From positions 32,001 to 96,000 of the IMG/VR virus record IMGVR_UViG_3300031952_000005: a stretch of DNA of 64,000 bases; one strand, written 5' to 3'. Origin of the DNA: a virus. The notes beneath the pieces are model-generated. The model did no database searches and had not been told where the DNA came from. It saw nothing but the letters and a program-made list of their open reading frames with translations. Positions 4,301 to 30,045 of the stretch are shown here, piece after piece (position 1 is the first letter of the stretch; each line of letters opens with the position of its first letter). A program made the translations under genes and the position numbers.

Positions 4301-7215
4301 TATACAGCATACTGTGGATTAATCTTTTTTGCTTTGTTTCTTAATACACGAATGTCATCTTCTAATTCTTGCAGTCTATCAAAGTCATTGTCATCAAGTA
4401 ACACTTCATTTCCTTTTCCTACTTGGAATGTAATTTGTTGAATTTCAAAATATTTTTCCTGCAGTTCATTTCTAATGTCTTCAGGCATTAACTCTTGCAG
4501 TTTATAAAATGATTCATTAAATGGTAAAGATGTATTATATATTAACCATCTAATTCTTTCTGTATTAAACGCTTCTTTTTCTTTATACTTGTCAAACAAC
4601 TGTTGTTTAGCAGCATCATGTTCAGGAGTGCCAAATTTAGTATTTACCTCACTTACAAGAACACGTATATCAGCATTTAATTCTCTTAGTTTTGAAGTGT
4701 ATTCTTTATAGGTGTTTTCATATTGCTGACTGTATGGTTTATTAAAAGTAAGATTTCTTCTATCTTCATATTCACCAGTGTCTTTATTGAAAACTTTATA
4801 ATCTCTCCACTCAGATATTGCATCATTTAATTCATCAACAGTAAATCTTTTTAATAACTCATCTCTGTCTTTATCAAATTGCATAACAGCAAGGTCATTT
4901 TGCATATTGTATACAGCACGTGCTTGTCCATTTTTGTACATTTGTGTCATTGCAGATATTGCAAGGTCACTATTAGATGCAGATGCAATACCTTGGTCTA
5001 ATAATAATCCTGAAAATAATGATGTACTATTATAAATATCTTGTGAACCAATGTACACTTGTGAATTTGGATCAGTAACAGCATTAATATATTTCTTTAA
5101 TGCTTCTACGTTAAATTCTATTCCAGTAGTAACATACGCGCGTAAACGTAATAACTCAAGTTCTTTACGTTGTATATTGTCTAGTAGATTTTTATTAGTA
5201 ACATTACCTTTTGTAACTTTTTCTACAAACTCAGGTGATATTAATGATATTAAACTTCCTTTTAATTGCTTGAATAATCCTGCTGCTTTACCAGCTTTCA
5301 TATCCTCTAGTTCTTTTTCTAGTTGTGCAATTTTTGGTAAAAGTGCTTCACGTGTTTGTTTATTTACAGAAGAAAACACTGCTTCACCTGGAGTCATAAG
5401 TATCTTTACACCGTTTAGTAAAAATGCCTCTCTAAAATTAGACTCAATAGTTAAGTGATTTAATTCTAGCCGAGTTAATTTCTGATATACAGGACTGCTT
5501 AATGAAATATTATTTTCTGGATTTTTACTTGCGTCGTTAATAATGTTTTTTAATATTTCAACAATATCGCGTAGACCTTTGGATCTTGAAAATGCTTGAT
5601 GTATTTGTGTAGTATCTGTAGTAAAAAAATCTAGTGTGCCATTTCTAAATGATTTAATTGCTTCTTCTGACAAATCAGATAACTTTTGTAAGTCTTCTTC
5701 AGCAGCTGCTAGTATATTAAAAAAGTTATTTTGATATGCTTTATCTGTATTAGATGACTTTTCAACATACTGATTAAACGTTGTAAGAGTTTGTCTTCTT
5801 GTTGCAAGTAACTCGCGTAATGGTGTAGTGTTCTTACCTTGAGAATCTAACTCGTTAATTCTATTACGAATTTCTTCAATCTGTTGTTTATACGCTTCTT
5901 TTAATGCATCCATTATTCTCTGGTTTTCTTCTGCAGTAGGAGTAAACTCTAGAGTCTGAAAGTTTTTTAAAAGTTTATCTTCAACTTCTTTGTTACCAAT
6001 TGGTATTTCTTTATCGATGGCATCACGATATTCTTTTAATCTTCTAGCAGTTTCTAGTGGTTGTGTAACCCAGAATCCTGTAGTATTAGATGGAGTTACT
6101 GCGTATGTTGCATAGTCCCAGTAGTTATTACCTTGAAATATATGTAAAACCTCGCCTAAGAATTTGTTGTTAGCATCTGTCTGATACATAAGAGCAACAA
6201 TCTTACTTTCTTCTGTAACAAGTCCTATTTGACCAAGCATGTTTTCATATGCTTTTAACTGCAGTGTCCAGTTATCGTATGCTGTTCTATTTAAATTTAC
6301 ATTTTCTAATTCACCAGCCATTCCTTTCTGACCTTTTACAAGATAAGAAGTATTAGCAAGATTTTCAAATGCTCTATCTCTATCTACTTCAACACCAAAT
6401 GGTGTAACAGTGACCATGTTGTGAACTTTTTTAGTCTTAAAGTCAAACACTTTTACTTTACCAGAGTTACTGATAAGAAGTAAATCTAAACGACCAACTA
6501 CAAAGTTACCATTAGCATCTTTACCAGCAAGTGTAATTTCAGGTAATATAATATAACCTTCATCTTTGTTTATAGATACATGTTTTGCAACGCGTGTTGC
6601 CATGTCAAATATCTTTTCTTTAGATAGTTCTTCAATATAAAATGGAGTTCTTTCTAAATACTTCTTGTATGTTTCATCAAAAAATTCTTCAGTAAGTACA
6701 ACTTCAATACTTGAGTTTTTCTTTAATGCTTCTATCTGTGCTTTCTCTAACACATTATGCATAAATGTACCAAACAATTTAAATGCTTCATACTTTAAAG
6801 GATCACCTTTAAACTCAGAAGAACCAATAAATGATGTTACAGAATAAGAAGGTAGTGTATTTCGACCATCTTTGCGTAATTCAATATTCTTTTCTAGAAA
6901 CGCTTGATAGTCTCTGTTGTTTTGCATTAACTTGCCAATTGCCTCACGTTGTGCATTGTTTGCAAATAAACTAATATTTGCTAGAGTAGCTGCTTGTTCT
7001 TTAGTTCTTTCCAGTTTAAATTCATCAGAGTGTCGAACATGTCGCTCATCAGTTTCTTCAACTTTCATACCAGCAATAAGAGCTTTTGCTTCATCAACTG
7101 ATGGAATAATATCTTGATTTAATGTAACAGCAGTTCTTGCAAGAGCTTCATTACCTTCAAATGCAGCAACAAGTGCTTTGAACATTGGATCATTTATGTT
7201 AATACAATTTGTCAT
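1303..7215 (-). CDS. Giant virion ejection (polyvalent) protein, 1970 aa, N-terminal PD-(D/E)XK nuclease domain and C-terminal transmembrane helix
   Basis: RecB-like motifs GTFMHNVLE...PEITL...GRLDLLL...VFDFKTK...QLKAYENML; long helical middle; hydrophobic AIMMALFTVLSMMALVYV followed by RKKDDDDEE; directly downstream of the virion RNAP gene as in crAss-like phages. Confidence 0.75.
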   Translation of the reverse strand: MTNCININDPMFKALVAAFEGNEALARTAVTLNQDIIPSVDEAKALIAGMKVEETDERHVRHSDEFKLERTKEQAATLANISLFANNAQREAIGKLMQNNRDYQAFLEKNIELRKDGRNTLPSYSVTSFIGSSEFKGDPLKYEAFKLFGTFMHNVLEKAQIEALKKNSSIEVVLTEEFFDETYKKYLERTPFYIEELSKEKIFDMATRVAKHVSINKDEGYIILPEITLAGKDANGNFVVGRLDLLLISNSGKVKVFDFKTKKVHNMVTVTPFGVEVDRDRAFENLANTSYLVKGQKGMAGELENVNLNRTAYDNWTLQLKAYENMLGQIGLVTEESKIVALMYQTDANNKFLGEVLHIFQGNNYWDYATYAVTPSNTTGFWVTQPLETARRLKEYRDAIDKEIPIGNKEVEDKLLKNFQTLEFTPTAEENQRIMDALKEAYKQQIEEIRNRINELDSQGKNTTPLRELLATRRQTLTTFNQYVEKSSNTDKAYQNNFFNILAAAEEDLQKLSDLSEEAIKSFRNGTLDFFTTDTTQIHQAFSRSKGLRDIVEILKNIINDASKNPENNISLSSPVYQKLTRLELNHLTIESNFREAFLLNGVKILMTPGEAVFSSVNKQTREALLPKIAQLEKELEDMKAGKAAGLFKQLKGSLISLISPEFVEKVTKGNVTNKNLLDNIQRKELELLRLRAYVTTGIEFNVEALKKYINAVTDPNSQVYIGSQDIYNSTSLFSGLLLDQGIASASNSDLAISAMTQMYKNGQARAVYNMQNDLAVMQFDKDRDELLKRFTVDELNDAISEWRDYKVFNKDTGEYEDRRNLTFNKPYSQQYENTYKEYTSKLRELNADIRVLVSEVNTKFGTPEHDAAKQQLFDKYKEKEAFNTERIRWLIYNTSLPFNESFYKLQELMPEDIRNELQEKYFEIQQITFQVGKGNEVLLDDNDFDRLQELEDDIRVLRNKAKKINPQYAVYMEEFNNLFDFDTSIAYFERKKADAIAKFQEHPELLKKWFEDNQVTVPTSDKEVNGQLVKGWYTVLSDLYEQRAEIFGSDSAVADLIKQRSEILKPHKVAGILQSQFVTEEDAENIADIEAQLESIFEGKTFDMSKLTPEEKQRSTSIKEQINRIASMQLTKSYLRIRDVKIKALYSSKKLLVNAKLTLEKAKDLKDAALITEATKAVIDQENQFDIHEKEFQKWYNLTHEEAYKSILDTEEDIYKRMVAKSFNYQRLPAPSAAAEFMETLPHPKYKIKKLKESSYNPDFLKSPDGIPMPKGIYKDADDVYQIDRSAYKAENISGKYMNIMQDPQLFNFYNKLTKMFFDLQVRTDGKKIGYMVPGFASTTMQNFSREGVIEGAKNRWEQYIDKAWKTHSVQDTVNNTFGDNGGRIRQRFNDQLPENMQSKDAIGCLIKWTTEAHYNIAMQEIAPVGDIFIAGIELLSEDLKKSIQNKAVVTDKDGRPIDMNKRLKELDNVVSILKFERRKFINAQDQSLTYLNRKLTKIVNNVMSYTSFIRIGFDVVNQTKNYVSGNVQAFIAAGGLESDHYSQEDYMWAKGQVYGLGENAFIKNYFGDWGRVSDISKSTMMYRLFNPMQKDYLKYVDEVTGDSSRRLLAKAMNVQELGYLLQDKGDTEIGVTVMYAILNRYKYKTFDIDANGQKVYRKNAEGEEEVIPAHEVYIKDTSGAIVRRADVEYTQEDENRLRNTIYSEMRRAQGNYAKSDQTAFEETVTGKLVFFFRKYVIPQMLNRFGYLRPNYEAGEVAVGYWRAFATAVKYYGPGEVAKHVVLGSKHIMRSNKSKMNDFYSRKVNQAKRDAIMMALFTVLSMMALVYVRKKDDDDEELSFLEGNAIRVLWGVQGETNSMFPVGGGSKEYIKNFTTFTAYTRELNAIMATSSHMLNLMLSMIINGSEEPDEDDGGWKYEIWKDSHYMRQAGGYEKGDAKIMKDFYDLTGIKNFRDIADPNWRIDIMKRNQ

Positions 7216-7218
7216 ATC

Positions 7219-10200
7219 TTATAAACATTTAAGTTTTTCTATAATTTCTTGATTTGTCATTCCTGTTGTTTTCAAATTAGCAGCATAAGCAGCAAACTCA
7301 GTAGAGTAAGTATCAAATGATTTACCAGTAGCACTCTGATCATAAAAATATTTTACCATATCAAAGGTAACATTAATATTCTGAATATCTAAATCCAATT
7401 TTGATGGTGTAGTTGTTTCAAAATAATCAACATAATAATCAGTAGGATCACTTTTTAAAGTTTCTAATGATGTTTTTAAGTTGTTTATTTTAGTTATAAT
7501 ATTTTGTTTTTCTGCAGCATTAACAGCTTTAAAAACAAAGTTATCTACAGAACCTGTTTTTGTGTAACCATCTTTATCTATTTTAATAGTGTATTCTTTA
7601 TTTTTAGCTGCTCTACCTTTTACAATTGCATAATCAGTATATCTTTCAATTTCTAAAACTTTAATTTTATATTCAGAAGAATTATCATCATTGTAAACTG
7701 TAAGAATGCTACCCACAGTAGTTTCAGTTGCTCCTGTAAGTTGTTGTCTTAATGATTCAAGTTCTTTATTAATTTTTTCATTATTAGATTTAACAGTATT
7801 ATATTTTTCTTCAGCTTTTAAAAAATTATACGCTTGTTTAATAGTGTCAAAATCTTTTTGTTCAATTTTATCTTGTAGACTTCTTAATGAAACACCTTGT
7901 TTTAATTGATCTATTGTATATTCTTTAAAAATGCTTTCTAAAGTTAAAATAACAGGTGTTTTAGGTTTAACAGAATAATCTTCAAACATGTCTGCAGTTA
8001 AACCTTGAGTCATTTCTTCTGCAACATCTACTTCTGACACATCAAGTCTTGCTTTTTTATTAACCAAACTTGTGTAGCGTTTTGATTCTGCAACACTGAA
8101 TCCAATAGGACTTATTGTATTTACTGCAAGTTCCATTGGAAGTGCCACATATTTTGCAGCATTACCTACTGTTTTAAATTCACCAGTACCAGATATTGAA
8201 TTGATAACAGATTTACCAAAACTTTGATTATAAATTTGACTGTCTACACCTTGTAACAAAAATGTAGTTTTACCCATTCTTAACATAATAGGAAACTTGT
8301 ACTTGTTCTTTTCATCTTTGTCTTTAAAGATATTTAGTTTTTCACCAATTGCTGCAATAGCACCACTTGTTGTTTCTTCCATCTCATTAGCACCTTTCAT
8401 GTTAATGATAATTTCTTCAAGTTTTTGATCAGCTCCAAATATAGTATCTGTTAGTAAGAAAGATTTTTGTGTTGGACTTAGTGTAAGACCTAATACTTTA
8501 CCAACTATTTCATTTGCAATTGCTGTACGTTCATTAACATCAGTAGTTTTAAAATTAATATTTTTCATAAGTTTAGAAGAAAACCCTTCTGACTGATTGA
8601 ATGAAATAGTATTACTCTTTTTATTAGATGTAGATTTTATCTTTTTATTACCAACTTCTTTTGATGCACCATATGCCATCAGTACAAACAAGTCATCAAA
8701 TAACTTGTACACATCTTCTTGTGTAGCAGGATTGTCAGGAGTACTAATGTAATCTTGTATTGCATCAACTAATTCTTTTTTATTACCTTGTGCATTATCG
8801 AGTATTTTAATAAACTCTTCTATGTTTTTAGATAATGGTATTTGTAAATCTGCTGGCAAATACTGTAAGAATGAACCTGATTTATATTGCAAACCTGTTC
8901 TAGCAAGTTCATGATAAAATAATTTTTTCATAAACAAGTTCTCTTGTTGCAATAAGAAATAAGCATCATCAGCTATGTTATCAGCTAACTCACCAGCAAT
9001 CTTTGCTTTACTTACCATCTCTAAAGTTTTTTCTTGAATGTTTTCTCCATCAGTAGTAAGTACTGTTGATTTACTATTAGACACTTTTAAGAACTGTAAA
9101 AACCTATTTTCAGGATATTCAGTCTTCATTGCATCTAGTTCTTTCTCAATTGAATTTGTAAACCATTGATCTGCTTTAAATGTATTAATTAAGTTTTTAT
9201 CATCTTCATCAAAACTTGCTTGCATAGATGGATTAGTACTTTTTCTACTACCAGGTACAGATATCTGATACTTACGTATAGCAATAAAACTTGTAATAAG
9301 TCTTGCAATATTTGATGAGTCTGTATATACAGTTTCAAATGCATTTTTAATTGGTTGAAAGAAAAGAGTTCTTTCTAAAAATATTTTACCTGCTTGTTCA
9401 TCTAAATCATTCATTGCATCTGCTAATGGAACCCATGCTTGTTTACCATCAAATAATTTATCACTTGATTCTTTAGTAAACATAGACTCACCATTACGTA
9501 GTTCATTGATACTTCTTTGTAATTTATCAAATGATATAAAAGTTGGATTAATTTTCTTATACAAGTTTACTAATGAACCTGCGTTTCTAATACCCCATGT
9601 TTGCTGTGTTTGTTCTTTATATAACTGTAATAATATTACTTTCTGTGCTTCATTAGATAATAGAGTAGTTACACCTTTTATATGAGAAGATACAGTAAAT
9701 CCAATATCTTCAACAGTAAGGGTGTTACTTTCTAGTCTACTTTCATTAAGAGCATTCTGTTGAAAATCAATCATCAAGTTTTCCTTGTTGATTTTAACAT
9801 TACCAGGAAATGAATCTTGTGTAATTAATCCTGCATCTTTTAGTTCATTTAATAATGCTGCATTACCATTGTTTTTGATAAAGTCTTCCATTTCAGTTTT
9901 TAACTCATTAGTCAAAAACTTGAACTCAGTTGATATAGAGTCACTTACTGCAAAACGAGATGCTTGTACTTTATTAATTGCATTGTTAATTTCTGGAATA
10001 AAGTTAAATCCAAATGCAAATGCGGGATCTAATCCAATACCTATCATTGCAAGAGTAACTCCTGTATTTATTTCATTCATTCCAAGTGCTGCTGGAATAG
10101 GTTTTTTCATACCATCTGCAGCAATACCTAATACAACACCATTTAACATGATTACTCGTTGTCCATTTTTGTTTATTACACCAAATTTAAAAAGATTATT

Positions 10201-13200
10201 TTGTGTAACAACTGTACTACCATCTGATTGTAAATCATTACTTGCATATTTCCAAATTACATTATCAGAATTAAGTTCTAATTCATACTGACTTGCAAGT
10301 GCCAAGAACTTCTGCAATGATGCAGCAATACCAATCATGTCTTTGTATGCAGCACCTAATGCTTTAGATTCAATAACTGATGTAATTGTGTTGGGATCAG
10401 ACTTAGGTCCAAAGTTATCAAGATCTCTACCATATCCTGTTACAATACTTTCAAAATATTCTGTAGAAGAAGTCTCGTGTATATACAAGTTTTTAAATAC
10501 TGCTTCGTTAGATAGTATATCTATTTTTGCTTGTAAGTTTTTATTTTGATGTATTGGTAGTACTGACAAATGATTTACAATATTACTATCAAAGTTTGCT
10601 TGGTCTACTGGTAAACCATATTTTTCAAATACTTGCAGTGCTGCTTCTATACGTAATGAACCATTTGCAAAAGTTCTTAATCTACGTTTTTCATCACGTG
10701 TCTTTTTAAGATCTTGATATGTTTCATCAAGTTCAGTTTTTAAATCAAAATGTTCTTTACCAAATTTTCTACGATTTGCTTTTGCAAGATAATCATCAGG
10801 ATCATTTTCTGTATCTTCAATAGATTGAACAAATGCTTGTTTAACTACTTTTTTTTCAGATTTTATTTGTTTAATATCATCTTGTAAATCTTCTTCATAA
10901 CTTTCGAGTTCTTCATATATACCTGAAGTCATTGCTTTAATATAGTCTTCTTGAGTGTATCCCATTGCATACATAACTTCTAGAGCATTTGCACTTACAG
11001 AAAAATTATTTGTTTCAGTTAATGCTTTTCTTTTTGCACTGATCAACTTTCTAAAGTTTTCATCATCTGCCCTGTAATGTATGTACTCAATAAACTTACC
11101 TTGTGCAGGAGATTTATAAATGTTATAGTTACCATATTTTGCGTAGTCACCAACAGCATTTACATAATGAGCAAATGTTTGACCATAAAGTGAGTCAACG
11201 TCAAAGTCAGATCCAGCAAGTAAGTGTATAAATTGTGGTACAATAATACTATTTATGTGAGAACTATCTATATAATCTACCACTTTTAATACAATCATAG
11301 AACGTTTATCCTCAGTAGGAATACGTAATGCAAACATTTCACGAAGATTTTCCATAAAAAAATCTTCTTGTTGTTGACTTCTAAAAAATTGTTTTGGTAA
11401 TATACATTCTACAAAGTATTTTTTACTAACCAGTTCTCCTGCATCATCATATTCTGCTTCTATACGTACACCTAATGGTCTTACTTTTGTATTACGATAT
11501 TTTCCTGGATTATTTCTGTATTCTTCAGTTGTTATTACTTCACCATTTTCATCTTCTCTTACATCATAACCAAATGATGATACGTGAATGTTTTTAAATC
11601 CAGAACCTTTTTCATCTGTTATATGCTTACTATAAAGCGAAAAGAAATAATATTCTAGCATACTTCTTATTCCAGGTAAGTTAGGACTATGAACTGGTTT
11701 ACCAAAAGCATCAACATCAAATAGTTTTAATACTGAAGATGGTGCATTCTGTTGCTCAAGATTTTCTCTTATTAAATCAAATACTTTACCTAAATCAAAG
11801 TCTTCACCTTTACGTAAAAAGTGCTGTAACGACTGCAGATTAGAATCAGAAATATCATAAAGTGACTCTTGATATTTAAGAAGACTGTCACCTAATTCAT
11901 TCATTGCTTTTCTTTCAGTAGAAGACATAATTGTACCCGCCTCTGCATGACGTTTGTTTGCAAGTTCTTCTATGTAATTTAAATCTGCAGGTAATAATAT
12001 TTTACCTTGTACAGAGAATCGTGCAGTGTCATGTACACCAGAAGTTTCTACTTGAAGATACTTGTCTTCATTGTTTACTTTTAATGATGATATATTTAAT
12101 GGTAAGTAGTCATTATCAGCATGTGCAAAATAATCAACAGGAAGTTTTGTAGCATTTTTAGATGCTTCAGTATCCATGATTTGATCAATATTATGATACT
12201 CCATAGAATTTAAAATTTTATGCAATTTTATTCTATTTGGTTCATATTTTGCATGTATCTCAAGATATGTTTTTTGAATTTGTTGTTCTAATTCTTCAAT
12301 ATTACTGCTTACACTACCATCTTTGTTTATCTTATGATGTTCTTGTATTTGTTTACGTAAGGCGTATATAGTCATGTATTTGTCATGCAAATTATCATAT
12401 ACTTGATCACGAGTCATTCCTTCAGGTATAATTAATATACTTACATCATTTCTATCAATGTAACTTTCTGATTGTTTGTGATAAATATTACGAGAAGCAG
12501 TAACAGTCTTTTTAGGATTGTTTACTACTTTGTTTTTTTCCATTTTGAGTACTTCTTCTTCAGTAAGTTCACGATAATGTTTTGCAATTATAGAATGCAA
12601 TATCTCAGGAGTAAGTCTTCCTAATGATTCATGCATATCTGCTTGATGAAACAATGATGAAATACTCTGACCATCAAATACTTTTTGATTTAGTTTAAAG
12701 TTCTCATAGATTGTTTTACGTATTGTTTCATCTGGAATTTGAATATCATCTAGTACTTCTTGTGGAGAATAAAATGGACCATAATTAGGATGTTCTTCAT
12801 TAATATATCCAAACAATGTGTTAAGATAAGCAACTGTGTGTTTACCTTCTTTCATTGTACTACCAGATGCAAGAAACTTTTTATTACGTTTAGTAGAATC
12901 AATACCATCTTTAACGTTCATTGCTTTATCACCTGTATACAATTCATTTACCATTAGTGAATTATACCACTGATTGAAAAAGAAATCTGCTAGTAATCCA
13001 TTTAAATCAGCACGAGATTCTAATACACCTTGTACATTATAGTTTGGTTTTGTATTTGCATAAACAGAAGTAGTACTTACTGCAAGATTGTTATCAATTT
13101 TTAAAGTATCAGCAATAAGAGAAGATGTTAAGTATCTTAACGATGGTTGTTTTGTTTCAAACACTACAGGATACCCTTCTTCTTCAATAACTTTTCCTGT

Positions 13201-16200
13201 TGCAGGATCTTTCTTAATTGCTTTTACAGATTCTTCTTTTTCATTTACAACACCAAGTTTTTTTAAAGTGTTAATGTATGTGTTTAGTTCTTCTAACGCA
13301 AAATCATTTAATCCTTGACGTAAATCTGCAAGTGTACTTTCATCAATGTCTTCAAAGGATGCTTTGTCATCTTTAGCATACTCTAGTAATTTACTAGTAA
13401 GTAACTCATTTTTAGCATTTGCAAAAAAGTATGGTAAGTAATTAAAGTTATATGCTCTTAAATTTTCACTATCAACAGTTGCTCTTGTTTTATCATCCTT
13501 GCTTAGTACACCATTGTAGTTATTAATAAGTTTGTTAGAACTACCATCATCAAAGTTTTTTTTGTTAACCTCTCTTCTGTTCCATTCTTTTTTGATTCTG
13601 TTAAATTCTTGTTTTACTTTTCCTTCTAAATCATTTACAATTTTTAAATTCTTACCATCTTTTACAAGACCATTTTTATCAGCGTATGTTTGATAAAGAG
13701 ATGTAATTAAAAAGTTTGTTTGAGATGCCTCAAGAGTATCAAATGTACGAAGGAATGTCTGGATACTTGTTTTAGGAGTAGTTATGTTACCATCTTCATC
13801 AACAACAGTTTCATATGAAGAAACAGTTGTTCTTTGTAAAAATGATAGTATACTCATTACATGGAATGATTGTTTATCAAGTTTACCAAAAGTTTTACCT
13901 TCCTTGTATGTCTGGTTATTCATCTGAGCAACTCCACCAAACAATGATATGTTAGTATTGTCTAATAGTAACTTAGCAATTGTTGCTTGTTTACTAGTTT
14001 TGTCTTTTAACAAGTCGCCAAATAATGGATTGTCATTATAAAAGTCTTCTAAGAAATCATCATAGTATGGATCAGTTCTTAATGTATCTTTTAATCCTTC
14101 TCTTCTTAATGATTGACCTGTTAAAATTAATGGTGTATATTTCGTATAACGATACACAGGTTTACCAGCAGCATTACGAAATACACTTGGTAAATCAGTT
14201 GCATCATATTTTAATATGTATTTAGCAAATCTAGTAGAGATGTTAAAGAATGCACCTAAGTTTTTATTATTTTCATCAAGTGTTTTTCCAAATGCGTTTG
14301 AACTAATAGACTCATTTATTACTGGATCATATATTGATTTTATACTTCTAAAAAATTGTTTTTCAAGATACGCTTTATCAGCAATCATTGCAGAATTTGT
14401 AGCGTAATGATCTAGTGTCTTCTTGTCTATGTTTTCAAGAGCACCGTTAAGATTGTCAATTTTATCTATTGCAAGAATAGACATTCTGATTAATGATTTT
14501 GGTAATGTAATGCCTACATCTTTAAATGCATTATACAATTCAAATGTCATAGTTTCCAATACTGTATTTGCATTTAATAAACTACCTATAAGTATTTTTT
14601 TATTAATAATGTTTTCAGATAAAGTAACAAGTCTTTTTACTGCAGTTACATATTCAGGATCAGTTCTTTTTTTAGCGTGTGTTGTTATCATAGATGATAC
14701 CATGTCACGTCTTTTCTTTAATGCATCTGCTTGAAGAACTCTATCTGTTAATGTAAAACTTTCAATATTATTACCTGCTTCTTCAATTTCTGCAGTTTTT
14801 AAACGAGCATTTAACATTACATATTCTATTTCAGTACCATGAAGTACATCTATAAACATATTATATAATTCTTTGTTTGTTGATGGATTACCATTGGTAT
14901 CCATTCCTGTGTACTCTTTTAACTGATTGTAAATTGCTTGTAAATCAGCAGCTGCATCAAAATTACCATCTTCTTTATAGATTTTAGCAGTAACTTGCAT
15001 ATTGTTTATAATCTCATCTACTTTGACATCAGCTGATATTTTTAGTAATGAACCAAAAATACTTTCTCCATCAATTACTCTTGGAAATAGTATACCAGAT
15101 TCTGTATCTTCTTTCTCATAACTTATAATACCAAGAAATCTTCTTAATTGTCTTGGAGCTGAGTCAAGTCTGTTGTGCTCACCAAATCCTTCATCAATAT
15201 TTATATCATCAGAAATTTCTTCACCATCTTCAAAGTCTTCATCAACTTGTGACTTTTTTTCATTTTCACCTGCTAATTCTTTTAACAGTGTATTTTTATC
15301 AATTGCTGTACCAGTACCATCCAGTAATGAATATAACTCTTGAGTTTTTTTCTTAACTAGTTTTTTTAATACTTCAACAGATACTTGTCCAAGATTATTA
15401 TCTAAAGGATCTGCTTCATATTGTTTTACTTTATTTGGTAATACTTTACCCTTGTATGCAGCATTGCCTGAGTTATTTATATCATTAACAGTTTCATTAT
15501 TTAACCTTGCTCCTAACATAAATCTATATTGAGAAACAAGATTGCTATATTGTTCAAGAACTTGTTTTTCTTTACCAGGATTCTTTTTAATCAATTCATC
15601 AAGATTATATACTTTTTCAAGTAACAATGTTTGCGCTGTTTTAAATTTTGCATCAAAAGTTTGTCCAGATGTATTTTCAATAACATATTTTGTCATCATA
15701 TATACCAACTGATTTTGTTCAGCTTTTAATAATGTTGTAGGTGATTGACTAACGCCAGATGATGAATACTTGTCGTTAATAATTTTTTTCAATCCAGGTA
15801 TTAACTCATATGCTGCTTGTCCATCATATAATTCAGATTGTATTTGTTCTGATTTATAGTATCCTCTTTTGATATTCTTGTATGTACTGTCAACTAGATT
15901 ACTTCTTTGAGTAAACATGTCAATCAGTTTTTTTAGTAACTCAAATAATTTTGCTACAAGACCTTGTGGTTTTGTATTTTTATTCATGTAGTTTTGAAAA
16001 CCATCTGCAAGAATTTCTTCTGCTTGTAACTGAAACATTTTATCATACTCATACACATAGTTTTTTTCACTTGCAAATTTCTTTAATGCTGCAGGTGTAA
16101 ATGCACTCTTGTGTTTTTTATTAGATGATACTGCATCAATTAATCTTGAACGTTGTTCTGGTGTCATCAAGTATCTAAACACACCATGAAATGCCTCGTG

Positions 16201-19200
16201 AAATACTACACCTTTTGACAAGATAGAGTTATTCAAATAGATAACTTTGTCTTTAAACATTCCTAGTACGTTACCATCAATACTTGACAAATCAATTATA
16301 CTTGCAATTTCTTCTTGACTGATACCAAACTGAGGAAGATTTTCTTGTAACCATTGTACAGCATTCTGTCTTTCTGCTTCTGTTTCTGTTTGTACTTCTG
16401 TATTAGAAATAGAAAACATTTCATTTTCAGGAATATCATCTATAGTAACATTATTACTGTCTGTTACAATAATAGGTTGAGCTTGTACAACAACAACGTT
16501 TTCTACAGGGTGCTGTGTAACTTCTAATGGACTTTTATTAGATAAAGGTATTCCAGCAGCAGTTGGAGATTTTGAAGTGATTACAAGACGATTTCTTGGT
16601 ACATCTGATATATTAAAACTATTTACATTTCTTTCATAATCTTTTTTTGCTTGTGTGTCATTTAAATCTGAAAATACAACACGAGAAACTTGTTTACCTT
16701 CATCATCAATATCTACTACTAAATGTTTTGGTTCTGGATAGTCATTCATAAAGTTTTCAATAAATCCAGGATATTTTTTACCATTTTCTAGTAACTGTCC
16801 AATAACTTTATTAATTATTAATTTTGAAAACCCTTCTTGTTGTTCTTTTATTGCATCAATTAATTTTACTACATTAGGAGAAGAATTTGTATTACTATAC
16901 ATTTCATTTACCATGGAGTAAAACTTTGCAAGATCTTTTTGTTTGTTTAAATCTAATTTAGAAAATGCAATATTTTCTGCAACAACATCTGCTACTAATG
17001 AAGCATTGCCTCTTAGTGTACTTGCAAATGCTATTATTTTTCCTTCTTCACCATTAACAATTTTACCATCTACTACTCTTGGACCAAACGTAAAGTTAAA
17101 ATCTGATTTGTTATCTTCTATAAAACCATACTTACTATCTTTTGATTTATTAGATGGTCGTACTTCAATTTGCAAATGTCCATTTTGATCACTTGCAAAA
17201 TTTATAAATAATTCTACTTTTTTATTTGCTGATGCAAACGCTTTAAATTTGTAAACTTTTCTATCAAATGATTGTAATTGTAATTTTCTATCAGCAGCAT
17301 TTAATACATCAGATAACGTAGTTATAAATGTAGCAAACCCTTCTACTTGTGATAATACATTTACAGGAGATACTGCTCGCCATCCATATGTACCATTATT
17401 ATTAAACCTTATAATAATATGTCTCTGCGTATTATAACTACTACCTTTAAATATTTGATCTTTAATGTATGAATCATCAAGTTTTATTCTAGAATCAAAA
17501 TGTGAATTTACGTATTCTTCCTGTGTAACAATATCTTGTACATTACCTTGATTATCTTTTACAACAATTCTTTCATTAGAATTTAGTGTATTTAATAATC
17601 TAAATTTACTTTGTTTTGCTTTTTCAGGATAGTTTCCATCCTTATTTTTTTTGTCAGAAAACTTAGTAAATGCAAATACTACATTACGCTCTTCTTCTTT
17701 TATAGTTTTACCAACCTGGTCAATAGTGGCAATAGTTAATTTACGTGATAAATTTGTTTCTTCTTCTATTACTTCAGAAAGATTTTTAATTTTTGTGTCA
17801 CCTGTTTTTTGAGAACCAATGTTGTACTGAGAAAAGAATTGTTCTGTTACATCAACAGAATTTACATCATCAGTAAACTGAGGTTCTACAATTGCTGATA
17901 GTTGCTCTTTAAAGTCATTGTATAACTCATAAGCGTTTTTCATTGTGTTAATATCGTTCTCATCTAAACTATCTGTAGTATTATCATTTAATCTTTTGAT
18001 AGACAGTTCTTTAACTTTTTCAAGATGTACAGGATTTGAAAAATCTATTTTTTGTGAAGTGTTATCACTATTTAAAAATACATAGTTATCTAATGGATAC
18101 AAGTAAAATTTTTCACCAGTACCAATTATCTCACCAACTAATGCAAATTTACTTTCAGATTGTTGTGGTCTAGCAACTGTAATAACAGTTCCTTTTGAAG
18201 TTGATTTTAAATATTTTATTTGAGTTTCATTTTCAAATGTTTCATGTGTTCTGTTTGCAAGTCCTTTATATTTTGGATTAGTTGCAGCAAGTCCTTGTAT
18301 TCTACTGATACGATCATCACCAACAGTACTTAATGAAACAGCATGTATTCTTACACCTGCTGATGGAAAACCTGTTTTAGCAAGATTCTTTAATGCATCT
18401 TCAACTTTTTGTTGTAAACCAATTTCACTTCTTATAGGTTTAATAGTAAAGTTAGATGATATTCTATCCTGATAAAATTCTTGTTGTCCTTTGTTACTAT
18501 TAGATGTATCATCATTACGTGCAGGTCTTTCTGTTAAAATATCTTCAGCATCAAGTTTAAATTCATCACCATTTTCAGTTGTTATAAATAATCCTTCAGG
18601 TTTACTTGTTGCTTCAACCATGTTATTATCCTTAAATGTAACAAGAACAGTTTTTAATTCAGCAAGATCTGATATATCTCGTATTGCAATAAAATCAGAT
18701 TGTTTATTTAAAGATTCTATAACAGAGGTCATTCGACTTAATAAAAAACTTTTGTTATCAAAATTATTTATAACATCTCTTAGTTCAGATGTAATATAAA
18801 TTAATATAGTATTTTTTGTTTCAAGATCTTCAAAATCATTTGTGTTAAAATAGTTATTAATCATTGTGAGTACTTCTGTAAGATCATCACCAGTTATAAC
18901 TTTTTTATTTTCAAGATTTAGTATTGCTCTTTGAATTGCTTCAACTTTTCCAATAGGTGTTTTCTTAACAGTATATAATGGAGATATTGAAGAAAGAAAA
19001 TTATCAGCATCAGATAATAATATTTTTGCATCAATGATTTTTTCTGCATTTCCTACTTCATAAAATGATTGATCTAATCCATTTAAACCAACATATATTT
19101 CTGCAATAGAAAATAAAGAAAGTGATTTTTCATAATTAGAAAGACCACTTTTTAAAATAAACTTTGCAGTATTGTCAAAGTTCTTATATGTTTCAGGATT

Positions 19201-19263
19201 TAGTTTGATTAAATTTCTTACAACTGATACAAATTTGTCAGTTGATAATTCACATTGTTTCAT
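7219..19263 (-). CDS. Virion-packaged single-chain two-barrel DNA-dependent RNA polymerase with fused zincin metalloprotease domain, 4014 aa
   Basis: Catalytic DxDxD motif GSDFDVDSL (11194-11208) preceded by LRIPTEDKRSM (RxP), plus an upstream VFDGQS motif; zincin HEAFH (16186-16200) with downstream EEILAD. Architecture matches crAss-like / phi14:2 gp66-type virion RNAPs. Confidence 0.9.
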   Translation of the reverse strand: MKQCELSTDKFVSVVRNLIKLNPETYKNFDNTAKFILKSGLSNYEKSLSLFSIAEIYVGLNGLDQSFYEVGNAEKIIDAKILLSDADNFLSSISPLYTVKKTPIGKVEAIQRAILNLENKKVITGDDLTEVLTMINNYFNTNDFEDLETKNTILIYITSELRDVINNFDNKSFLLSRMTSVIESLNKQSDFIAIRDISDLAELKTVLVTFKDNNMVEATSKPEGLFITTENGDEFKLDAEDILTERPARNDDTSNSNKGQQEFYQDRISSNFTIKPIRSEIGLQQKVEDALKNLAKTGFPSAGVRIHAVSLSTVGDDRISRIQGLAATNPKYKGLANRTHETFENETQIKYLKSTSKGTVITVARPQQSESKFALVGEIIGTGEKFYLYPLDNYVFLNSDNTSQKIDFSNPVHLEKVKELSIKRLNDNTTDSLDENDINTMKNAYELYNDFKEQLSAIVEPQFTDDVNSVDVTEQFFSQYNIGSQKTGDTKIKNLSEVIEEETNLSRKLTIATIDQVGKTIKEEERNVVFAFTKFSDKKNKDGNYPEKAKQSKFRLLNTLNSNERIVVKDNQGNVQDIVTQEEYVNSHFDSRIKLDDSYIKDQIFKGSSYNTQRHIIIRFNNNGTYGWRAVSPVNVLSQVEGFATFITTLSDVLNAADRKLQLQSFDRKVYKFKAFASANKKVELFINFASDQNGHLQIEVRPSNKSKDSKYGFIEDNKSDFNFTFGPRVVDGKIVNGEEGKIIAFASTLRGNASLVADVVAENIAFSKLDLNKQKDLAKFYSMVNEMYSNTNSSPNVVKLIDAIKEQQEGFSKLIINKVIGQLLENGKKYPGFIENFMNDYPEPKHLVVDIDDEGKQVSRVVFSDLNDTQAKKDYERNVNSFNISDVPRNRLVITSKSPTAAGIPLSNKSPLEVTQHPVENVVVVQAQPIIVTDSNNVTIDDIPENEMFSISNTEVQTETEAERQNAVQWLQENLPQFGISQEEIASIIDLSSIDGNVLGMFKDKVIYLNNSILSKGVVFHEAFHGVFRYLMTPEQRSRLIDAVSSNKKHKSAFTPAALKKFASEKNYVYEYDKMFQLQAEEILADGFQNYMNKNTKPQGLVAKLFELLKKLIDMFTQRSNLVDSTYKNIKRGYYKSEQIQSELYDGQAAYELIPGLKKIINDKYSSSGVSQSPTTLLKAEQNQLVYMMTKYVIENTSGQTFDAKFKTAQTLLLEKVYNLDELIKKNPGKEKQVLEQYSNLVSQYRFMLGARLNNETVNDINNSGNAAYKGKVLPNKVKQYEADPLDNNLGQVSVEVLKKLVKKKTQELYSLLDGTGTAIDKNTLLKELAGENEKKSQVDEDFEDGEEISDDINIDEGFGEHNRLDSAPRQLRRFLGIISYEKEDTESGILFPRVIDGESIFGSLLKISADVKVDEIINNMQVTAKIYKEDGNFDAAADLQAIYNQLKEYTGMDTNGNPSTNKELYNMFIDVLHGTEIEYVMLNARLKTAEIEEAGNNIESFTLTDRVLQADALKKRRDMVSSMITTHAKKRTDPEYVTAVKRLVTLSENIINKKILIGSLLNANTVLETMTFELYNAFKDVGITLPKSLIRMSILAIDKIDNLNGALENIDKKTLDHYATNSAMIADKAYLEKQFFRSIKSIYDPVINESISSNAFGKTLDENNKNLGAFFNISTRFAKYILKYDATDLPSVFRNAAGKPVYRYTKYTPLILTGQSLRREGLKDTLRTDPYYDDFLEDFYNDNPLFGDLLKDKTSKQATIAKLLLDNTNISLFGGVAQMNNQTYKEGKTFGKLDKQSFHVMSILSFLQRTTVSSYETVVDEDGNITTPKTSIQTFLRTFDTLEASQTNFLITSLYQTYADKNGLVKDGKNLKIVNDLEGKVKQEFNRIKKEWNRREVNKKNFDDGSSNKLINNYNGVLSKDDKTRATVDSENLRAYNFNYLPYFFANAKNELLTSKLLEYAKDDKASFEDIDESTLADLRQGLNDFALEELNTYINTLKKLGVVNEKEESVKAIKKDPATGKVIEEEGYPVVFETKQPSLRYLTSSLIADTLKIDNNLAVSTTSVYANTKPNYNVQGVLESRADLNGLLADFFFNQWYNSLMVNELYTGDKAMNVKDGIDSTKRNKKFLASGSTMKEGKHTVAYLNTLFGYINEEHPNYGPFYSPQEVLDDIQIPDETIRKTIYENFKLNQKVFDGQSISSLFHQADMHESLGRLTPEILHSIIAKHYRELTEEEVLKMEKNKVVNNPKKTVTASRNIYHKQSESYIDRNDVSILIIPEGMTRDQVYDNLHDKYMTIYALRKQIQEHHKINKDGSVSSNIEELEQQIQKTYLEIHAKYEPNRIKLHKILNSMEYHNIDQIMDTEASKNATKLPVDYFAHADNDYLPLNISSLKVNNEDKYLQVETSGVHDTARFSVQGKILLPADLNYIEELANKRHAEAGTIMSSTERKAMNELGDSLLKYQESLYDISDSNLQSLQHFLRKGEDFDLGKVFDLIRENLEQQNAPSSVLKLFDVDAFGKPVHSPNLPGIRSMLEYYFFSLYSKHITDEKGSGFKNIHVSSFGYDVREDENGEVITTEEYRNNPGKYRNTKVRPLGVRIEAEYDDAGELVSKKYFVECILPKQFFRSQQQEDFFMENLREMFALRIPTEDKRSMIVLKVVDYIDSSHINSIIVPQFIHLLAGSDFDVDSLYGQTFAHYVNAVGDYAKYGNYNIYKSPAQGKFIEYIHYRADDENFRKLISAKRKALTETNNFSVSANALEVMYAMGYTQEDYIKAMTSGIYEELESYEEDLQDDIKQIKSEKKVVKQAFVQSIEDTENDPDDYLAKANRRKFGKEHFDLKTELDETYQDLKKTRDEKRRLRTFANGSLRIEAALQVFEKYGLPVDQANFDSNIVNHLSVLPIHQNKNLQAKIDILSNEAVFKNLYIHETSSTEYFESIVTGYGRDLDNFGPKSDPNTITSVIESKALGAAYKDMIGIAASLQKFLALASQYELELNSDNVIWKYASNDLQSDGSTVVTQNNLFKFGVINKNGQRVIMLNGVVLGIAADGMKKPIPAALGMNEINTGVTLAMIGIGLDPAFAFGFNFIPEINNAINKVQASRFAVSDSISTEFKFLTNELKTEMEDFIKNNGNAALLNELKDAGLITQDSFPGNVKINKENLMIDFQQNALNESRLESNTLTVEDIGFTVSSHIKGVTTLLSNEAQKVILLQLYKEQTQQTWGIRNAGSLVNLYKKINPTFISFDKLQRSINELRNGESMFTKESSDKLFDGKQAWVPLADAMNDLDEQAGKIFLERTLFFQPIKNAFETVYTDSSNIARLITSFIAIRKYQISVPGSRKSTNPSMQASFDEDDKNLINTFKADQWFTNSIEKELDAMKTEYPENRFLQFLKVSNSKSTVLTTDGENIQEKTLEMVSKAKIAGELADNIADDAYFLLQQENLFMKKLFYHELARTGLQYKSGSFLQYLPADLQIPLSKNIEEFIKILDNAQGNKKELVDAIQDYISTPDNPATQEDVYKLFDDLFVLMAYGASKEVGNKKIKSTSNKKSNTISFNQSEGFSSKLMKNINFKTTDVNERTAIANEIVGKVLGLTLSPTQKSFLLTDTIFGADQKLEEIIINMKGANEMEETTSGAIAAIGEKLNIFKDKDEKNKYKFPIMLRMGKTTFLLQGVDSQIYNQSFGKSVINSISGTGEFKTVGNAAKYVALPMELAVNTISPIGFSVAESKRYTSLVNKKARLDVSEVDVAEEMTQGLTADMFEDYSVKPKTPVILTLESIFKEYTIDQLKQGVSLRSLQDKIEQKDFDTIKQAYNFLKAEEKYNTVKSNNEKINKELESLRQQLTGATETTVGSILTVYNDDNSSEYKIKVLEIERYTDYAIVKGRAAKNKEYTIKIDKDGYTKTGSVDNFVFKAVNAAEKQNIITKINNLKTSLETLKSDPTDYYVDYFETTTPSKLDLDIQNINVTFDMVKYFYDQSATGKSFDTYSTEFAAYAANLKTTGMTNQEIIEKLKCL

Positions 19264-19281
19264 AAGAATAATTTTTTTTAA

Positions 19282-22200
19282 TTATTTGAAGCAAGAAAGA
19301 GCATCTTTCAGTTGGTCAATTATTGAGGCGTCAGTAATAATGTCCTCCTTTACAAATTTACTAATTTCTTTTGACTTTTCTGCATTTACAGTTTTGAAAT
19401 CTTTAAGTTCCTCATTTAATGATTCTAACATGTTGCGATTAGTTGACAATACATTAGGAGTATTTACTACATCAAACAAATCAATTTGTTGTTCTTTACC
19501 AGCAGTAGGTGCTTTTTTCTTTGGTGCATACTTGATTGGTTTACCAGTTATAACAGATTCACGTATTCCTTCAAGTTTAGTTTTACCTTCTTTTATTGAT
19601 GCATATTCTTGTAATGTTTTAAAGTCAGTACCATTTTTACTATTATGCACTTTCATAGATTTTTCACCACGCGCTTGCATACTACTATACATCATAGTAT
19701 CTAGTTTGTCTTCTGGATTAGTCAATGCACTATCCATAAATGTTTTTACAAACTCAATATCCTTTCTAGTATTATTAGCAGAATCTACAATTTCCTGTGC
19801 TTTTACTTCTGTCTCAACAGTTTGTACTACATTATCATTTTTATCTTTTACATCAAATGTTTGTTGAGTATTTGTTTGAACAACAAAAGATTCTTTAGTC
19901 ACTGGTTCAACAGCAGGTAAATCCATCATTTGACGAAGTAAAGCACTTTGATCTAATGCATTTTCATTTTCTTCAGGAGCAGCATTTACATTTGGAGTAG
20001 GAGCTGGCGTAGGTGCAGGAGTTACAATTGGTGCAGGTTGTGGTGGTGTAGGTGGTTCTTCTTCTTCTACATTAACAACAGGTTCTTCAGGTATTTCTTC
20101 TACTGGTACAACAGGTGCACTTGATGCAGAAGTTTTATTTATTATTTTATTTAACGCTGCAAGTATATATTGTTTTTCAAGTAATATATCATCAATTTGT
20201 TCTTGAGTACCGTCGATAGTTAATTCATCATAAATTTCATTTACCTCAGTAAGTTCATGTCGTAACTCAAGTTCTGACATATCCAAGTATTGTTGTCCAG
20301 GTGTTGTCTCAGGAATTTCGTGTACAGGATCTTCAGATGTATTTAGTAAACCATTAGCTGCAGCAACTGCTTCTTCTTCAGTTGCATGTCCTTGTGTAAT
20401 AACTGTTTTGTTACTATCCATAACACCAAATGTACCATCAGGATCTTGAAAAGTTTGATTATCTAAATTTACTGGAGTAATATTTTGTTTAGCAATTTCT
20501 ACAAGTGCTTCAATTGATTGTTTAAATTGTGATGAGTTTACAAGTTTTTCTTCATTAGGACCTAGTGCAATTTCACCACGAGCAATTTTATCTACAAGTA
20601 ATTGTTCTTTAACTGGTTCAATTTTACCAGTAGCAATCATTTGATCATACTCTTCATCTGTAATGTCTTCTACATACTCGTTTGGTGCATACTTTTTAGT
20701 TATGTCAGCAAACTTTGCAATCATGTTATCTTTAAGATCATCAAACAACTTTTGTGCATACTCACCATTTGCAATACCAAGATTTGGATCAAGTGATATG
20801 GTCAATAAGTTTTTATAGTTTTCATCTTCATACAGCATGTTTATTACTTCAAAACCAATTTGCACTTTATCTGATTGATTAAATGCACCATTTACTTCTT
20901 CTAAACTATCAAGTAATCCACCTTGACCATATACACTTGCGTATATATCAAGTTGAAATCTATTTAAAAATGATATAATTTGAAACTTCATTTTACCATC
21001 AGACATTTTGCTAATAGCATACTTAAAGTTTTTAGGATTCATCAATGTATCAACAGCACTCATGTAATCTTTTGTGTCTTTATCAAGTTTCATATAATCT
21101 ACTAACTTGTTATGCACATCACGCATTGCTGTTTCAGATATTTCAGTATCAACACCTGCCTGTTTATTTTTTACATTTAATAGTTTTCTAAATACTTCGA
21201 TTACTTCTGCATCATGTGAGTCAAATGTAGTATTAGTACTTGCAACATCTTCACCATCTTCATTAGTAACTGTTTGTACTTTATCTAATCGTTTACCAAC
21301 AAATGTATCTAGTACAACATTATCTCTTGTTACAACTTCTCCTTCTTCGTTTAAAGCAATACCTACATCAGTACGTTTACTAAAGTAAGACTGCCACTTT
21401 TGTAAATTTTCTAGTTCATCTTTCTTATCTTCAATTTGCTTTTTAATTTTAGGTGTCAGTGATGCATCAGTATTTTGTTGTAAGTTATTTTCATATATTC
21501 TTAATTCAGACATGATGTTACCTAATTCATCATTAAGTATTTTAGGATCTGTTAATACACGTATAACATAATCTGAACTAGTAGCAATACTTGAGTTGCT
21601 TAATAACTCTTGTGATATTTGACTAGCACGTTTTGCAGTCATATCACCTTTGACAGCATTCATTGCAATTATATGAACAGCATCTTCTTCTGCAGAACGA
21701 GCAATCATTGCTGTATAATGTTCTTTACTACCTGGAGTATATAAACTAGGTTCTGTAAAATTCTTTATCTTATTTCTCAGACCATCTGTTACGTCAGAAT
21801 ATTTTTTAATATCATTTGCCAGATTCTTAGAAAAGTCTAATGGTGTTGCATACTTAGTATCTTCTAGTTTAACACCAAATGATTTTTCAAAATCCTCATT
21901 ACTCATGTCCACACCCATCTCACGAACAGCTCTTTGCAATACATCGATAGAATCTGTACGTTTAGCGGCAGATATTGCAGATACTAATGCATTATCTCTA
22001 CTATTTTCAAATTCATATTGTAAACCTTTTGCTGCAGCTTCTGCTTGATTCTGTCCTTCTTGTACTTGATTAACAAAATTTACTATTTTATGTTTAAAGT
22101 TTCTTTCTTCTGTTTGTTTGAAGAAAGTATTTAAATATTCTATGTCTTTATCAAACTGTTTTTTAACAGCAAGTACAGGATTATCTCCAGGAGTTTTTGC

Positions 22201-26745: not shown

Positions 26746-26766
26746 GTTTATCTATTATATAAAATA

Positions 26767-29700: not shown

Positions 29701-29949
29701 TCCAGTATGTCTTTTACCAACAATTTTATTATGTTCTAAAAAACCATCATTGTTTATATCACCAATTACAGTTTCACCACCTTCAGCTTCTATATTTGCT
29801 TCTTCACGTGGTACTGCACTGATAGTGTTTTTGACATTACTATCTTGGTTAATTGGATTTACTTTAATGTATAAATCATTTCTATCAACTAAACTATAGT
29901 TACGTTGATCACCATTTTTTGGTAGTTGTTTTATTCTAATGTTGTACAT
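26767..29949 (-). CDS. Modular internal virion cargo protein, 1060 aa, with xxGG motifs
   Basis: N-terminal ANIEAEGGETV...GKRHTGGGVPL...FIFSD domain typical of crAss-like cargo genes; low-complexity linkers; MRYGG, FADGG, GKYGG, KKYGG motifs; Gln/Asn-rich coiled C-terminal region. Confidence 0.6.
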   Translation of the reverse strand: MYNIRIKQLPKNGDQRNYSLVDRNDLYIKVNPINQDSNVKNTISAVPREEANIEAEGGETVIGDINNDGFLEHNKIVGKRHTGGGVPLNVAPGSFIFSDTKKLKIKDPEVLSIFGITSFDKGGVTPAKIANKYPMNNYMNILKDNNYDQISKRTASKMLENNLEKLGMLALVQESMKGFPDGIPAIAESVMAGLQGQQAPGQEQGAPEEMMEGQEAAEEGQMRYGGSAYYQRAGTTKQPQTKKLPGKKKVAKEKPYIPTNTYKVGPDTSTGYWDRVGENWSSVDFKKSLNNPDDDPRMKQALKELIPFNGSSGVLDYAANMFTLPQKGINSLLTGYYESPMDTKSRYSPVSDTQHFWGDVATDPMIYPEIPVALGKGAVKLTGKAVQVAAPYVAQAAELTAKYGKQAGKFLAQYIGKIPFEQLLSKGYSIASRIGQAGLHAVDENENTNVEVTPQPKVKSVYAPTPIDTTRTAQERNVRTVVKENAPTVKQPQVVVASAPVVTNAVKPVASKVPVKAAAQSSNPNNNIIYTDEEFADGGLYLPKHQGTQPGVPSTVQGSGKTVVGYEYSNKTGNKRPVYSDGTKGQVILYDVEDADLTKTVQDKGYNFGYLPEDLRYKEKTVGPQTSQTGYKIDPESGFLYKDIKPGTRGLDEYMKIHADAINAYPGGAAKWRQDQIAGKGKANPAMTHLLEYENAAIGTVSGNKPYIDMGIEGALVPGVENYNLPGISKKPAPVVKTTPAAEQEFDIPVMENQMGPQERKPWWLQDQVYFAGKMTDDARKYGPGLAKVNLETSPYVLEDPARQIAALQEDAAATREGAYNSTAGNVAGASMVGQSNQRLGQIANTIGTVENRNVNTVNQALPRNAQIVNQERLLNANAQQKYLAESATANQQYDNARRDLKWGVIDAFNNGTTNMQRTNQLESMFPQYAFNRINGNVNFTQGREAYDENGNLLYDPYQNAAYPNDVASGNGYVTGPQFAAMKKDYMNNGMTSDQAHEAVLRQLGKSGSGTGSSQRNNMRDIVAAGQAIPQRVGKYGGYIKKYGGTVVDFGALPLYFFED

Positions 29950-29965
29950 AAACTTTTGAAGTTTA
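29949..29965. promoter_or_regulatory. 17-bp palindrome TAAACTT-TTG-AAGTTTA abutting the start codon (possible operator or translational hairpin)
   Basis: Perfect 7-bp arms; near-identical element at 60352-60368. Confidence 0.3.
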
Positions 29966-29987
29966 AAGTTAAAAATGATAAATCTCT

Positions 29988-30003: not shown

Positions 30004-30045
30004 AAATATAATTTGTTTTTTCCTATTTTGTTACAGAGTTTGTTA

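Follow-up and report, generated by a model that had tools for sequence, protein, structure and literature searches.

Why would three giant phage proteins that are almost free of cysteine keep cysteines at precisely those ends that face one another? The question is raised by a 64,000-nucleotide (nt) stretch of DNA, here called the window (positions 32,001-96,000 of IMG/VR record IMGVR_UViG_3300031952_000005). It encodes p1604, p4014 and p1970, the last three products of a block of very large genes. The middle protein is, judged by its catalytic motif and profile matches, a crAss-type virion RNA polymerase (RNAP) protein. Comparison with related loci indicates that the C-terminus of each protein very probably pairs with the N-terminus of the next. 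A head-to-tail disulfide that tethers injected RNAP cargo is the best reading of this pairing, and on balance a likely one.

Cysteines at the facing ends

The three genes lie close together on the minus strand, with intergenic gaps of 3 nt and 18 nt, and their products contain one, three and two cysteines, respectively.

19282-24096, minus strand: p1604, 1604 amino acids (aa), first link; sole cysteine C1602, none N-terminal
7219-19263, minus strand: p4014, 4014 aa, middle link; C4, C2620 and C4013
1303-7215, minus strand: p1970, 1970 aa, last link; C4 and C1406, none C-terminal
19291-19293, minus strand: codon of p1604 Cys1602, third residue from the C-terminus (...LSCFK, then stop)
19252-19254, minus strand: codon of p4014 Cys4 (MKQCE...)
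7225-7227, minus strand: codon of p4014 Cys4013, second-last residue (...KLKCL, then stop)
7204-7206, minus strand: codon of p1970 Cys4 (MTNCININ...)
11404-11406, minus strand: p4014 Cys2620, internal, 66 residues before the DFDVD motif
2998-3000, minus strand: p1970 Cys1406, internal

Four of the six cysteines stand 1-3 residues from an end that faces a neighbouring gene product; the outer ends of the set (p1604 N-terminus, p1970 C-terminus) have none. With 6 cysteines in 7588 residues, the probability that at least four of the six fall by chance into the 16 junction-facing terminal positions is 3e-10. The proteins are also strongly depleted in cysteine as a whole, at a frequency of 0.079% versus 1.26% in the 19 other open reading frames (ORFs) of the window. 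About 96 cysteines would be expected in them at the window rate, and the probability of 6 or fewer is 3e-33.

An earlier note on this DNA, written from the letters and their ORFs, had reported the cysteine counts, the codon coordinates, the terminal peptides and the restriction to junction-facing ends; translation reproduces all of these exactly. The shared features that it described are present as well. The two C-termini have a common (I/M)T(D/N)xxII(D/E)xLK, kept in homologues as IIE(Q/K)LK...C, and both N-termini start MxxC with an aromatic residue 7-8 positions further on (CExxTDK(F/Y) and CPNxNxPE(W/F) in homologues).

The rule across crAss-like loci

IMG/VR was scanned with an alignment of the RNAP, which gave 80 loci with identities as low as about 23%, some of them from crAss-like phages of the human gut (single loci are cited below by L numbers). 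In almost all 80, a giant protein ends in cysteine and the next one starts M-x(1-3)-C. When adjacent gene pairs are tabulated (81 loci), both facing cysteines are present in 72 pairs and neither in 105, with only the C-terminal one in 12 and only the N-terminal one in 8. A Fisher test, which ignores shared ancestry, gives 1.7e-31 for this co-occurrence. Across 73 non-redundant junctions, the C-terminal cysteine lies at -1 to -3 (counting back from the end) in 68/73 and the N-terminal cysteine at residue 3-4 in 67/73. Neighbouring residues and exact offsets vary while the cysteine stays, and both TGT and TGC codons are used for it. No chain begins with a protein that has an N-terminal cysteine or finishes with one that has a C-terminal cysteine. 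Charge complementarity between C-terminal tails and the N-termini that follow them is not significant (Spearman -0.12, p 0.32).

The 20 discordant pairs mostly involve either a longest ORF that begins upstream of an internal M-S-C start or the insertion of a small ORF (L018, L025). Start calls of the former kind also occur in a reference genome. In crAss002 (L097, MN917146.1; locus 9089-21826), the annotated start of gp33 puts its first cysteine at residue 35, and the relatives L080, L083 and L084 begin M-S-C at the point matching that cysteine; the true start probably lies 32 codons downstream of the annotated one. Among the other loci, the longest-ORF calls in L029, L035, L072, L078, L079 and L085 probably start too far upstream in the same way. 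The small ORFs, which have no terminal cysteine, are a 165-aa frame at 13390-13887 in L018 and a 162-aa frame between the 4281-aa and 2147-aa ORFs in L025. The partners that flank them read ...PCK, stop / MACT... and ...KCFK, stop / MSCI..., and the small ORFs look like inserted genes outside the chain.

Fused genes lack the pair and split genes gain it

As far as gene comparison can tell, the strongest argument for pairing is co-variation with gene architecture. In L068, L028 and L023, a p1604-like part and the RNAP are fused into proteins of 4,300-4,800 aa, whose N-terminal 900 residues are homologous to p1604 (hidden Markov model (HMM) E 1e-78 to 1e-99). The fused junction has zero cysteines in all three, and the fused proteins of L068 and L028 have one cysteine altogether, at the C-terminal end.

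The opposite change is found in L008 and L009 (37-39% identity), in which the p4014 equivalent is split near residue 3775. The RNAP part now ends ...NNC or ...LDC, and a new link of 193 or 665 aa starts MKC or MAKSC and ends ...IKCL. The last 56 residues of this link are homologous to the end of p4014, and the unsplit p4014 of the window has no cysteine at the position matching the split. Extra links of 142-859 aa also occur in L012, L051, L021, L023 and L041, each with an N- plus a C-terminal cysteine. HMMs of the 160-residue end regions found no counterparts inside the fused proteins, because the surroundings of the junctions evolve too fast. The earlier note had proposed a survey of terminal-cysteine co-occurrence that would take in split and fused genes; its outcome is that the pair co-occurs (72 with both, 105 with neither), that fused proteins lack it and that splits gain it.

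Reference crassviruses

The cultured crassviruses show the same layout. In phi14:2, gp67 (1797 aa) has one cysteine, its last residue; the RNAP gp66 (2180 aa) has cysteines at 3 and -2 only; and gp65 (1421 aa) has one at 3. In crAss001, gp47 has one cysteine at -3, the RNAP gp50 has cysteines at 5, -1079 and -9, and gp49 has one at 5. Compared with the window, the sets gp67-gp66-gp65 and gp47-gp50-gp49 have a homologous RNAP and an identical terminal-cysteine pattern, whereas their flanking proteins are too diverged for the window-family HMMs and their split points and lengths differ. The cargo proteins are packaged in the virion in both phages, according to the record annotation for phi14:2 and to mass spectrometry for crAss001 (PMC10172136). 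For the RNAP protein, presence in virions and injection are known from phi14:2 and crAss001 only. In crAss001 virions, subunits of tail and portal-vertex proteins are moreover joined by disulfides (PMC10172136).

In crAss001, 11 kb separate the gene for gp47, which is on the opposite strand, from the start of gp50, and the pattern [..C][C..C][C..] still holds. DAC15 is arranged as crAss001, with the first link on the opposite strand and the cysteine pattern kept. Since the rule persists with non-adjacent, opposite-strand genes, it is a property of the proteins and not of a stop-start DNA junction. Two-protein chains that follow the cysteine rule are found in crAss002, p-crAssphage (gp45/gp44) and cr127_1. 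In p-crAssphage (L087, BK010471.1; locus 24456-25723), a thioredoxin and a truncated thioredoxin lie a few kb from the RNAP genes.

Conservation within each family

The p1970 family comprises 71 homologues of 26-97% identity, and a cysteine at position 3-8 is present in 69/69 full-length proteins. In 36 full-length homologues this is the sole cysteine in about 2,000 residues; the two homologues that lack it are N-terminally truncated gene calls. C4 of p1970 is invariant in both alignments inspected. Nearly all of the 44 p4014 homologues have a cysteine at 3-5 plus one at -1, -2 or -6, many of them only these two. An alignment of 34 p4014 sequences retains only 10 invariant columns, which include the three catalytic aspartates and C4013. 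In the p1604 family, 23/23 homologues have exactly one cysteine, at -3 or -2, and the end of the protein forms a conserved feature:

19285-19374, minus strand: last 30 residues of p1604 (SKEISKFV...IIxQLK...C(F)K), a conserved C-terminal tail that hardly varies among homologues of 48-96% identity

Conservation of the terminal cysteines had been named in advance as a point on which the proposal could fail; they are kept in 71, 44 and 23 homologues of p1970, p4014 and p1604, respectively, at identities as low as about 30%, and are often the sole cysteines in 2,000-4,000 residues. Strong selection on the terminal cysteines is supported by these sequence comparisons. The internal cysteines, Cys2620 of p4014 and Cys1406 of p1970, are confined to the closest clade, with identities of about 60% and above. 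A clade with the start MACQ... lacks both, and only the two terminal cysteines remain there.

Predicted end modules

Structure prediction suggests small helical end modules behind flexible linkers on both sides of the p4014/p1970 junction (confidence is given as predicted local distance difference test, pLDDT).

7222-7401, minus strand: C-terminal module of p4014, some 60 residues in four short helices, of which the final one ends K-C-L (AlphaFold2, pLDDT 85-94)
7066-7215, minus strand: N-terminal module of p1970, roughly 50 residues, with Cys4 in a coil ahead of three short helices (AlphaFold2)

In the AlphaFold2 model, the p4014 module is preceded by a low-confidence linker, and its terminal helix, which ends at the cysteine, is predicted with pLDDT >90. 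The first 450 residues of p1970, modelled with AlphaFold2 from a 26-row alignment, have a mean pLDDT of 76.6: residues 10-48 form helices (pLDDT 72-91), a low-confidence linker spans 51-61, and the nuclease body follows. The N-terminal module is the best-conserved part of 26 N-termini whose identity is otherwise 12-17%, with C4, L15 and P38 invariant and N6 nearly so; across 20 diverse C-termini, K-C are the only invariant columns. A complex prediction for the C-terminal 180 residues of p4014 with the N-terminal 280 residues of p1970 returned a score of 0.07, which counts neither for nor against pairing.

Identity of the three proteins

The earlier note had labelled the proteins, in gene order, as channel former, RNAP and nuclease. 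The second and third labels are borne out by recognisable elements.

11194-11208, minus strand: DFDVD catalytic motif of RNAP (p4014 residues 2686-2690)
6421-6777, minus strand: p1970 residues 147-265, a PD-(D/E)XK nuclease domain (match to Pfam PF12705 that passes the cut-off, E 7e-6)

Residues 2684-2691 of p4014 read GSDFDVDS, and the three aspartates are invariant in 34 homologues. A profile of the p4014 core (21 relatives) matches PDB chain 6VR4_A, which is phi14:2 gp66, with E 2.4e-31 over chain residues 1062-1585, and the p4014-family HMM matches phi14:2 gp66 (2e-39) and crAss001 gp50 (2e-37). The gene lies downstream of a terminase-portal-capsid-tail block, as expected for a Crassvirales virion RNAP. 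For p1970, a Foldseek search with the N-terminal model gave weak matches to AdnAB/AddAB, Exo5 and Cas4 nucleases. The label of channel former is not established for p1604, which has no recognisable domain and a single hydrophobic segment.

Several searches returned no match. PHROGs has no family for p1604, p4014 or p1970; single-sequence PDB searches matched none of the three proteins, p4014 included; the p4014 C-terminus had no tblastn match among named phages; and a Pfam scan of the three proteins gave nothing besides PDDEXK_1, with neither a docking-domain family nor an intein domain.

Comparison with known systems

That nothing similar had been described, as the earlier note supposed, proves incorrect. 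A head-to-tail disulfide has been seen in cyanophage A4, where cryo-electron microscopy places the C-terminal helix of gp27 in a cleft of gp26 with a Cys1715-Cys5 disulfide (PNAS 2025, PMC12002296). In the genome of this phage, Anabaena phage A-4L, ORF27 (1717 aa) has a single cysteine at -3 and ORF26 (1114 aa) a single cysteine at 5. The gp27/gp26 pair of cyanopodophage A4 resembles the window junctions in that it joins consecutive ejection proteins, otherwise free of cysteine, in the geometry C-x-x-stop followed by M-x-x-C. It differs in that A4 belongs to another family (Saffermanviridae), has no virion RNAP and forms one link as against a chain of two to four. The family HMMs of p1604, p4014 and p1970 gave no match at E <= 1 to A-4L ORF25-29, and the Foldseek matches of the p1970 N-terminal model included no A4 chain. 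By analogy, the same mechanism is proposed for the A4 and crAss-like chains, without family membership.

In Schitoviridae (N4, DEV), cysteine is suppressed in the injected proteins, which has been ascribed to passage through the periplasm (PMC11445570). The earlier statement that N4-type virion RNAPs are cysteine-free agrees with this literature (PMC11445570). The Schitoviridae ejection operon is like the window in its giant injected virion RNAP and in the strong suppression of cysteine in ejection proteins. In contrast to the window, it has no cysteine at all and no terminal pair, and its RNAP is an unrelated T7-like enzyme in a single 3,500-aa chain.

Docking domains of polyketide synthases (PKS) and nonribosomal peptide synthetases (NRPS) had also been invoked. 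These are short helical modules that connect the C-terminus of one giant polypeptide to the N-terminus of the next and fix subunit order, as proposed here; unlike the window proteins, they act non-covalently, serve an assembly line rather than ejection and show no homology. The comparison holds as an analogy only: helical end modules are predicted in the window proteins, and the Pfam scan shows no homology.

A description of a terminal-cysteine chain in Crassvirales was not found in open-access papers and preprints, and the A4 paper describes neither a general rule nor co-variation with gene splits (PMC12002296). What is new relative to the A4-type pair is a probable chain of several links, with the virion RNAP among them, which extends across the order and tracks gene fission and fusion.

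Proposed mechanism and alternatives

Under head-to-tail disulfide tethering, the three genes would encode virion-packaged, injected RNAP cargo of a crAss-like podophage. Inside the particle, the helical module at the C-terminus of each protein would dock on its counterpart at the N-terminus of the following protein, with an inter-chain disulfide between their cysteines. The p1604, p4014 (RNAP) and p1970 (nuclease) proteins would in this way be joined in a single quasi-linear chain some 7,600 residues long. With the cysteines at the extreme ends, the joint would be almost branch-free, and a partly unfolded chain could thread through the tail channel much as one polypeptide does; purging cysteine from the rest of each protein would avoid wrong cross-links. 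The reducing host cytoplasm would then open the links and free the subunits. That the chain is ejected in the order of its genes, that it avoids branch points and that reduction in the cytoplasm releases it is inferred. Of the paired docking that the earlier note put forward, the pairing of successive termini stands, as it co-varies with splits and fusions and persists in non-adjacent genes; the disulfide link is a likely reading, and threading in gene order and release by reduction are inferences. A wider proposal is an order-wide covalent "train" of two to five proteins that stands in for peptide bonds wherever the ancestral polyprotein gene was split and sets the sequence of ejection; its uncoupling by reduction in the host cytoplasm may also time RNAP activation. 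It is worth considering, with the balance slightly against it.

Several points weigh against tethering by disulfides. Direct evidence of a covalent cargo bond is absent for any crassvirus, and the crAss001 virion paper (PMC10172136) and the phi14:2 RNAP preprint (bioRxiv 10.1101/2020.03.07.982082) are silent on cargo cysteines. The cytoplasm in which the particles assemble is reducing, and the habitat of gut crassviruses is anoxic. No thioredoxin or Erv1/ALR-type oxidase was found in the 105-kb record (87% complete), although the Erv1 blank is weak, as its control matched nowhere; the lack of a phage oxidase is a difficulty for the disulfide. Cysteine counts alone do not fix the topology, and shared ancestry inflates the two-by-two statistic. 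Gut lineages retain the terminal pair and yet have up to 23 internal cysteines in the RNAP protein, so the argument that cysteine is excluded to avoid scrambling is not universal. Finally, the last large protein of L018 (19862-23908) and of L023 (19293-23561), as called, has no N-terminal cysteine, its start being uncertain. The preceding links at these two junctions end ...TCA or ...ECG, and the last protein begins about 200-300 nt past the previous stop (MAYTPEWEE... in L023); a different true start or a frameshift is possible.

Given pairing, a disulfide is by analogy the most likely chemistry for the window phage, because each end offers one cysteine without conserved metal ligands nearby, A4 provides a precedent and crAss001 virions contain disulfides. 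The pairing evidence itself leaves the chemistry unspecified, and assembly in a reducing cytoplasm would suit terminal modules that pair non-covalently, with the two cysteines in a shared metal site or another reversible contact. We regard this as rather unlikely: a terminus supplies one cysteine and no conserved His, Asp or Cys partner nearby, only K-C is invariant in 20 C-termini and only C4, L15 and P38 in 26 N-termini, and the bond in the solved A4 structure is a disulfide. Equal numbers of N- and C-terminal cysteines would also suit other pairing schemes, in which the middle protein is cyclised and the first and last are joined, or each end forms homodimers, and there is no structure of the window proteins. 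Such topologies are improbable in view of the gene splits, each of which adds one cysteine on either side, at ends that are contiguous in the fused ancestor. Two-protein systems (p-crAssphage gp45/gp44, cr127_1) allow only a hetero-pair or homodimers; homodimers do not require the co-variation of the two ends that is seen, and A4 displays a hetero head-to-tail pair directly.

The terminal cysteines might instead be independent signals (for packaging, processing, lipidation, or portal or capsid attachment) that make no mutual contact. Neighbouring cargo proteins may indeed be processed (xxGG motifs), and cleavage of the fused forms has been proposed (bioRxiv 10.1101/2020.03.07.982082). The outer chain ends, however, never have a cysteine, fused forms have none at the internal junction, and the C-terminal cysteine of one protein predicts the N-terminal cysteine of the next, which makes this idea highly improbable. 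Hardly any weight is left for chance, for an effect of composition or for a feature of the stop-start region at the DNA level, such as translational coupling. The genes are tightly packed (the gaps of 3 nt and 18 nt), as coupling would have it, but the probability in the window alone is about 3e-10, the cysteine is kept while offsets, neighbours and codons vary, and the rule holds for partner genes 11 kb apart on opposite strands. These data refute both chance and translational coupling, which were rejected. A split intein with trans-splicing was rejected as well: Pfam detects no intein domain, and cysteines 1-3 residues from the ends leave no room for fragments of about 100 and 35 aa.

Neighbouring genes

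The source record is a 105-kb virus contig that is 87% complete. Phage structural genes (terminase, portal, major head, tail) lie on the minus strand at 33733-63986 (PHROG matches), and the block of very large genes that ends with p1604, p4014 and p1970 follows downstream on the same strand.

Four proteins encoded upstream of the chain (24100-33728, minus strand; 881, 1060, 537 and 672 aa) have 2 cysteines in 3150 residues and zero in three of the four, which fits injected cargo akin to crAss001 gp45 and gp46. Both cysteines belong to the 537-aa cargo-like protein (30046-31659, minus strand), where they form an N-terminal CxxC (MNKKCTECEKNK). Its C-x-E-C-E-K-N is retained in the close relatives L092, L093 and L094, some of which have further internal cysteines; the more distant L095 and L096 do not show it. 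The protein upstream has no C-terminal cysteine partner. A redox-active or metal-binding role of this CxxC is possible. Two other proteins (46883-50794, minus strand; 740 and 551 aa) have N-terminal regions with 3-4% cysteine, in sharp contrast with the cargo block.

Implications for crassvirus cargo

No phages are more abundant in the human gut than crassviruses, whose cargo proteins, roughly 5 MDa in total, have to be packed and extruded in order. For crAss001, the order of the cargo has been described as likely controlled by packing and mutual interactions (PMC10172136). An order-wide sequence rule offers a concrete and cheaply testable mechanism for the ordered, all-or-none delivery of the RNA polymerase together with its partners. 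It explains the freedom with which cargo genes fuse and split, corrects start codons (e.g. crAss002 gp33) and marks the members of the injected set. It also suggests redox control of early transcription.

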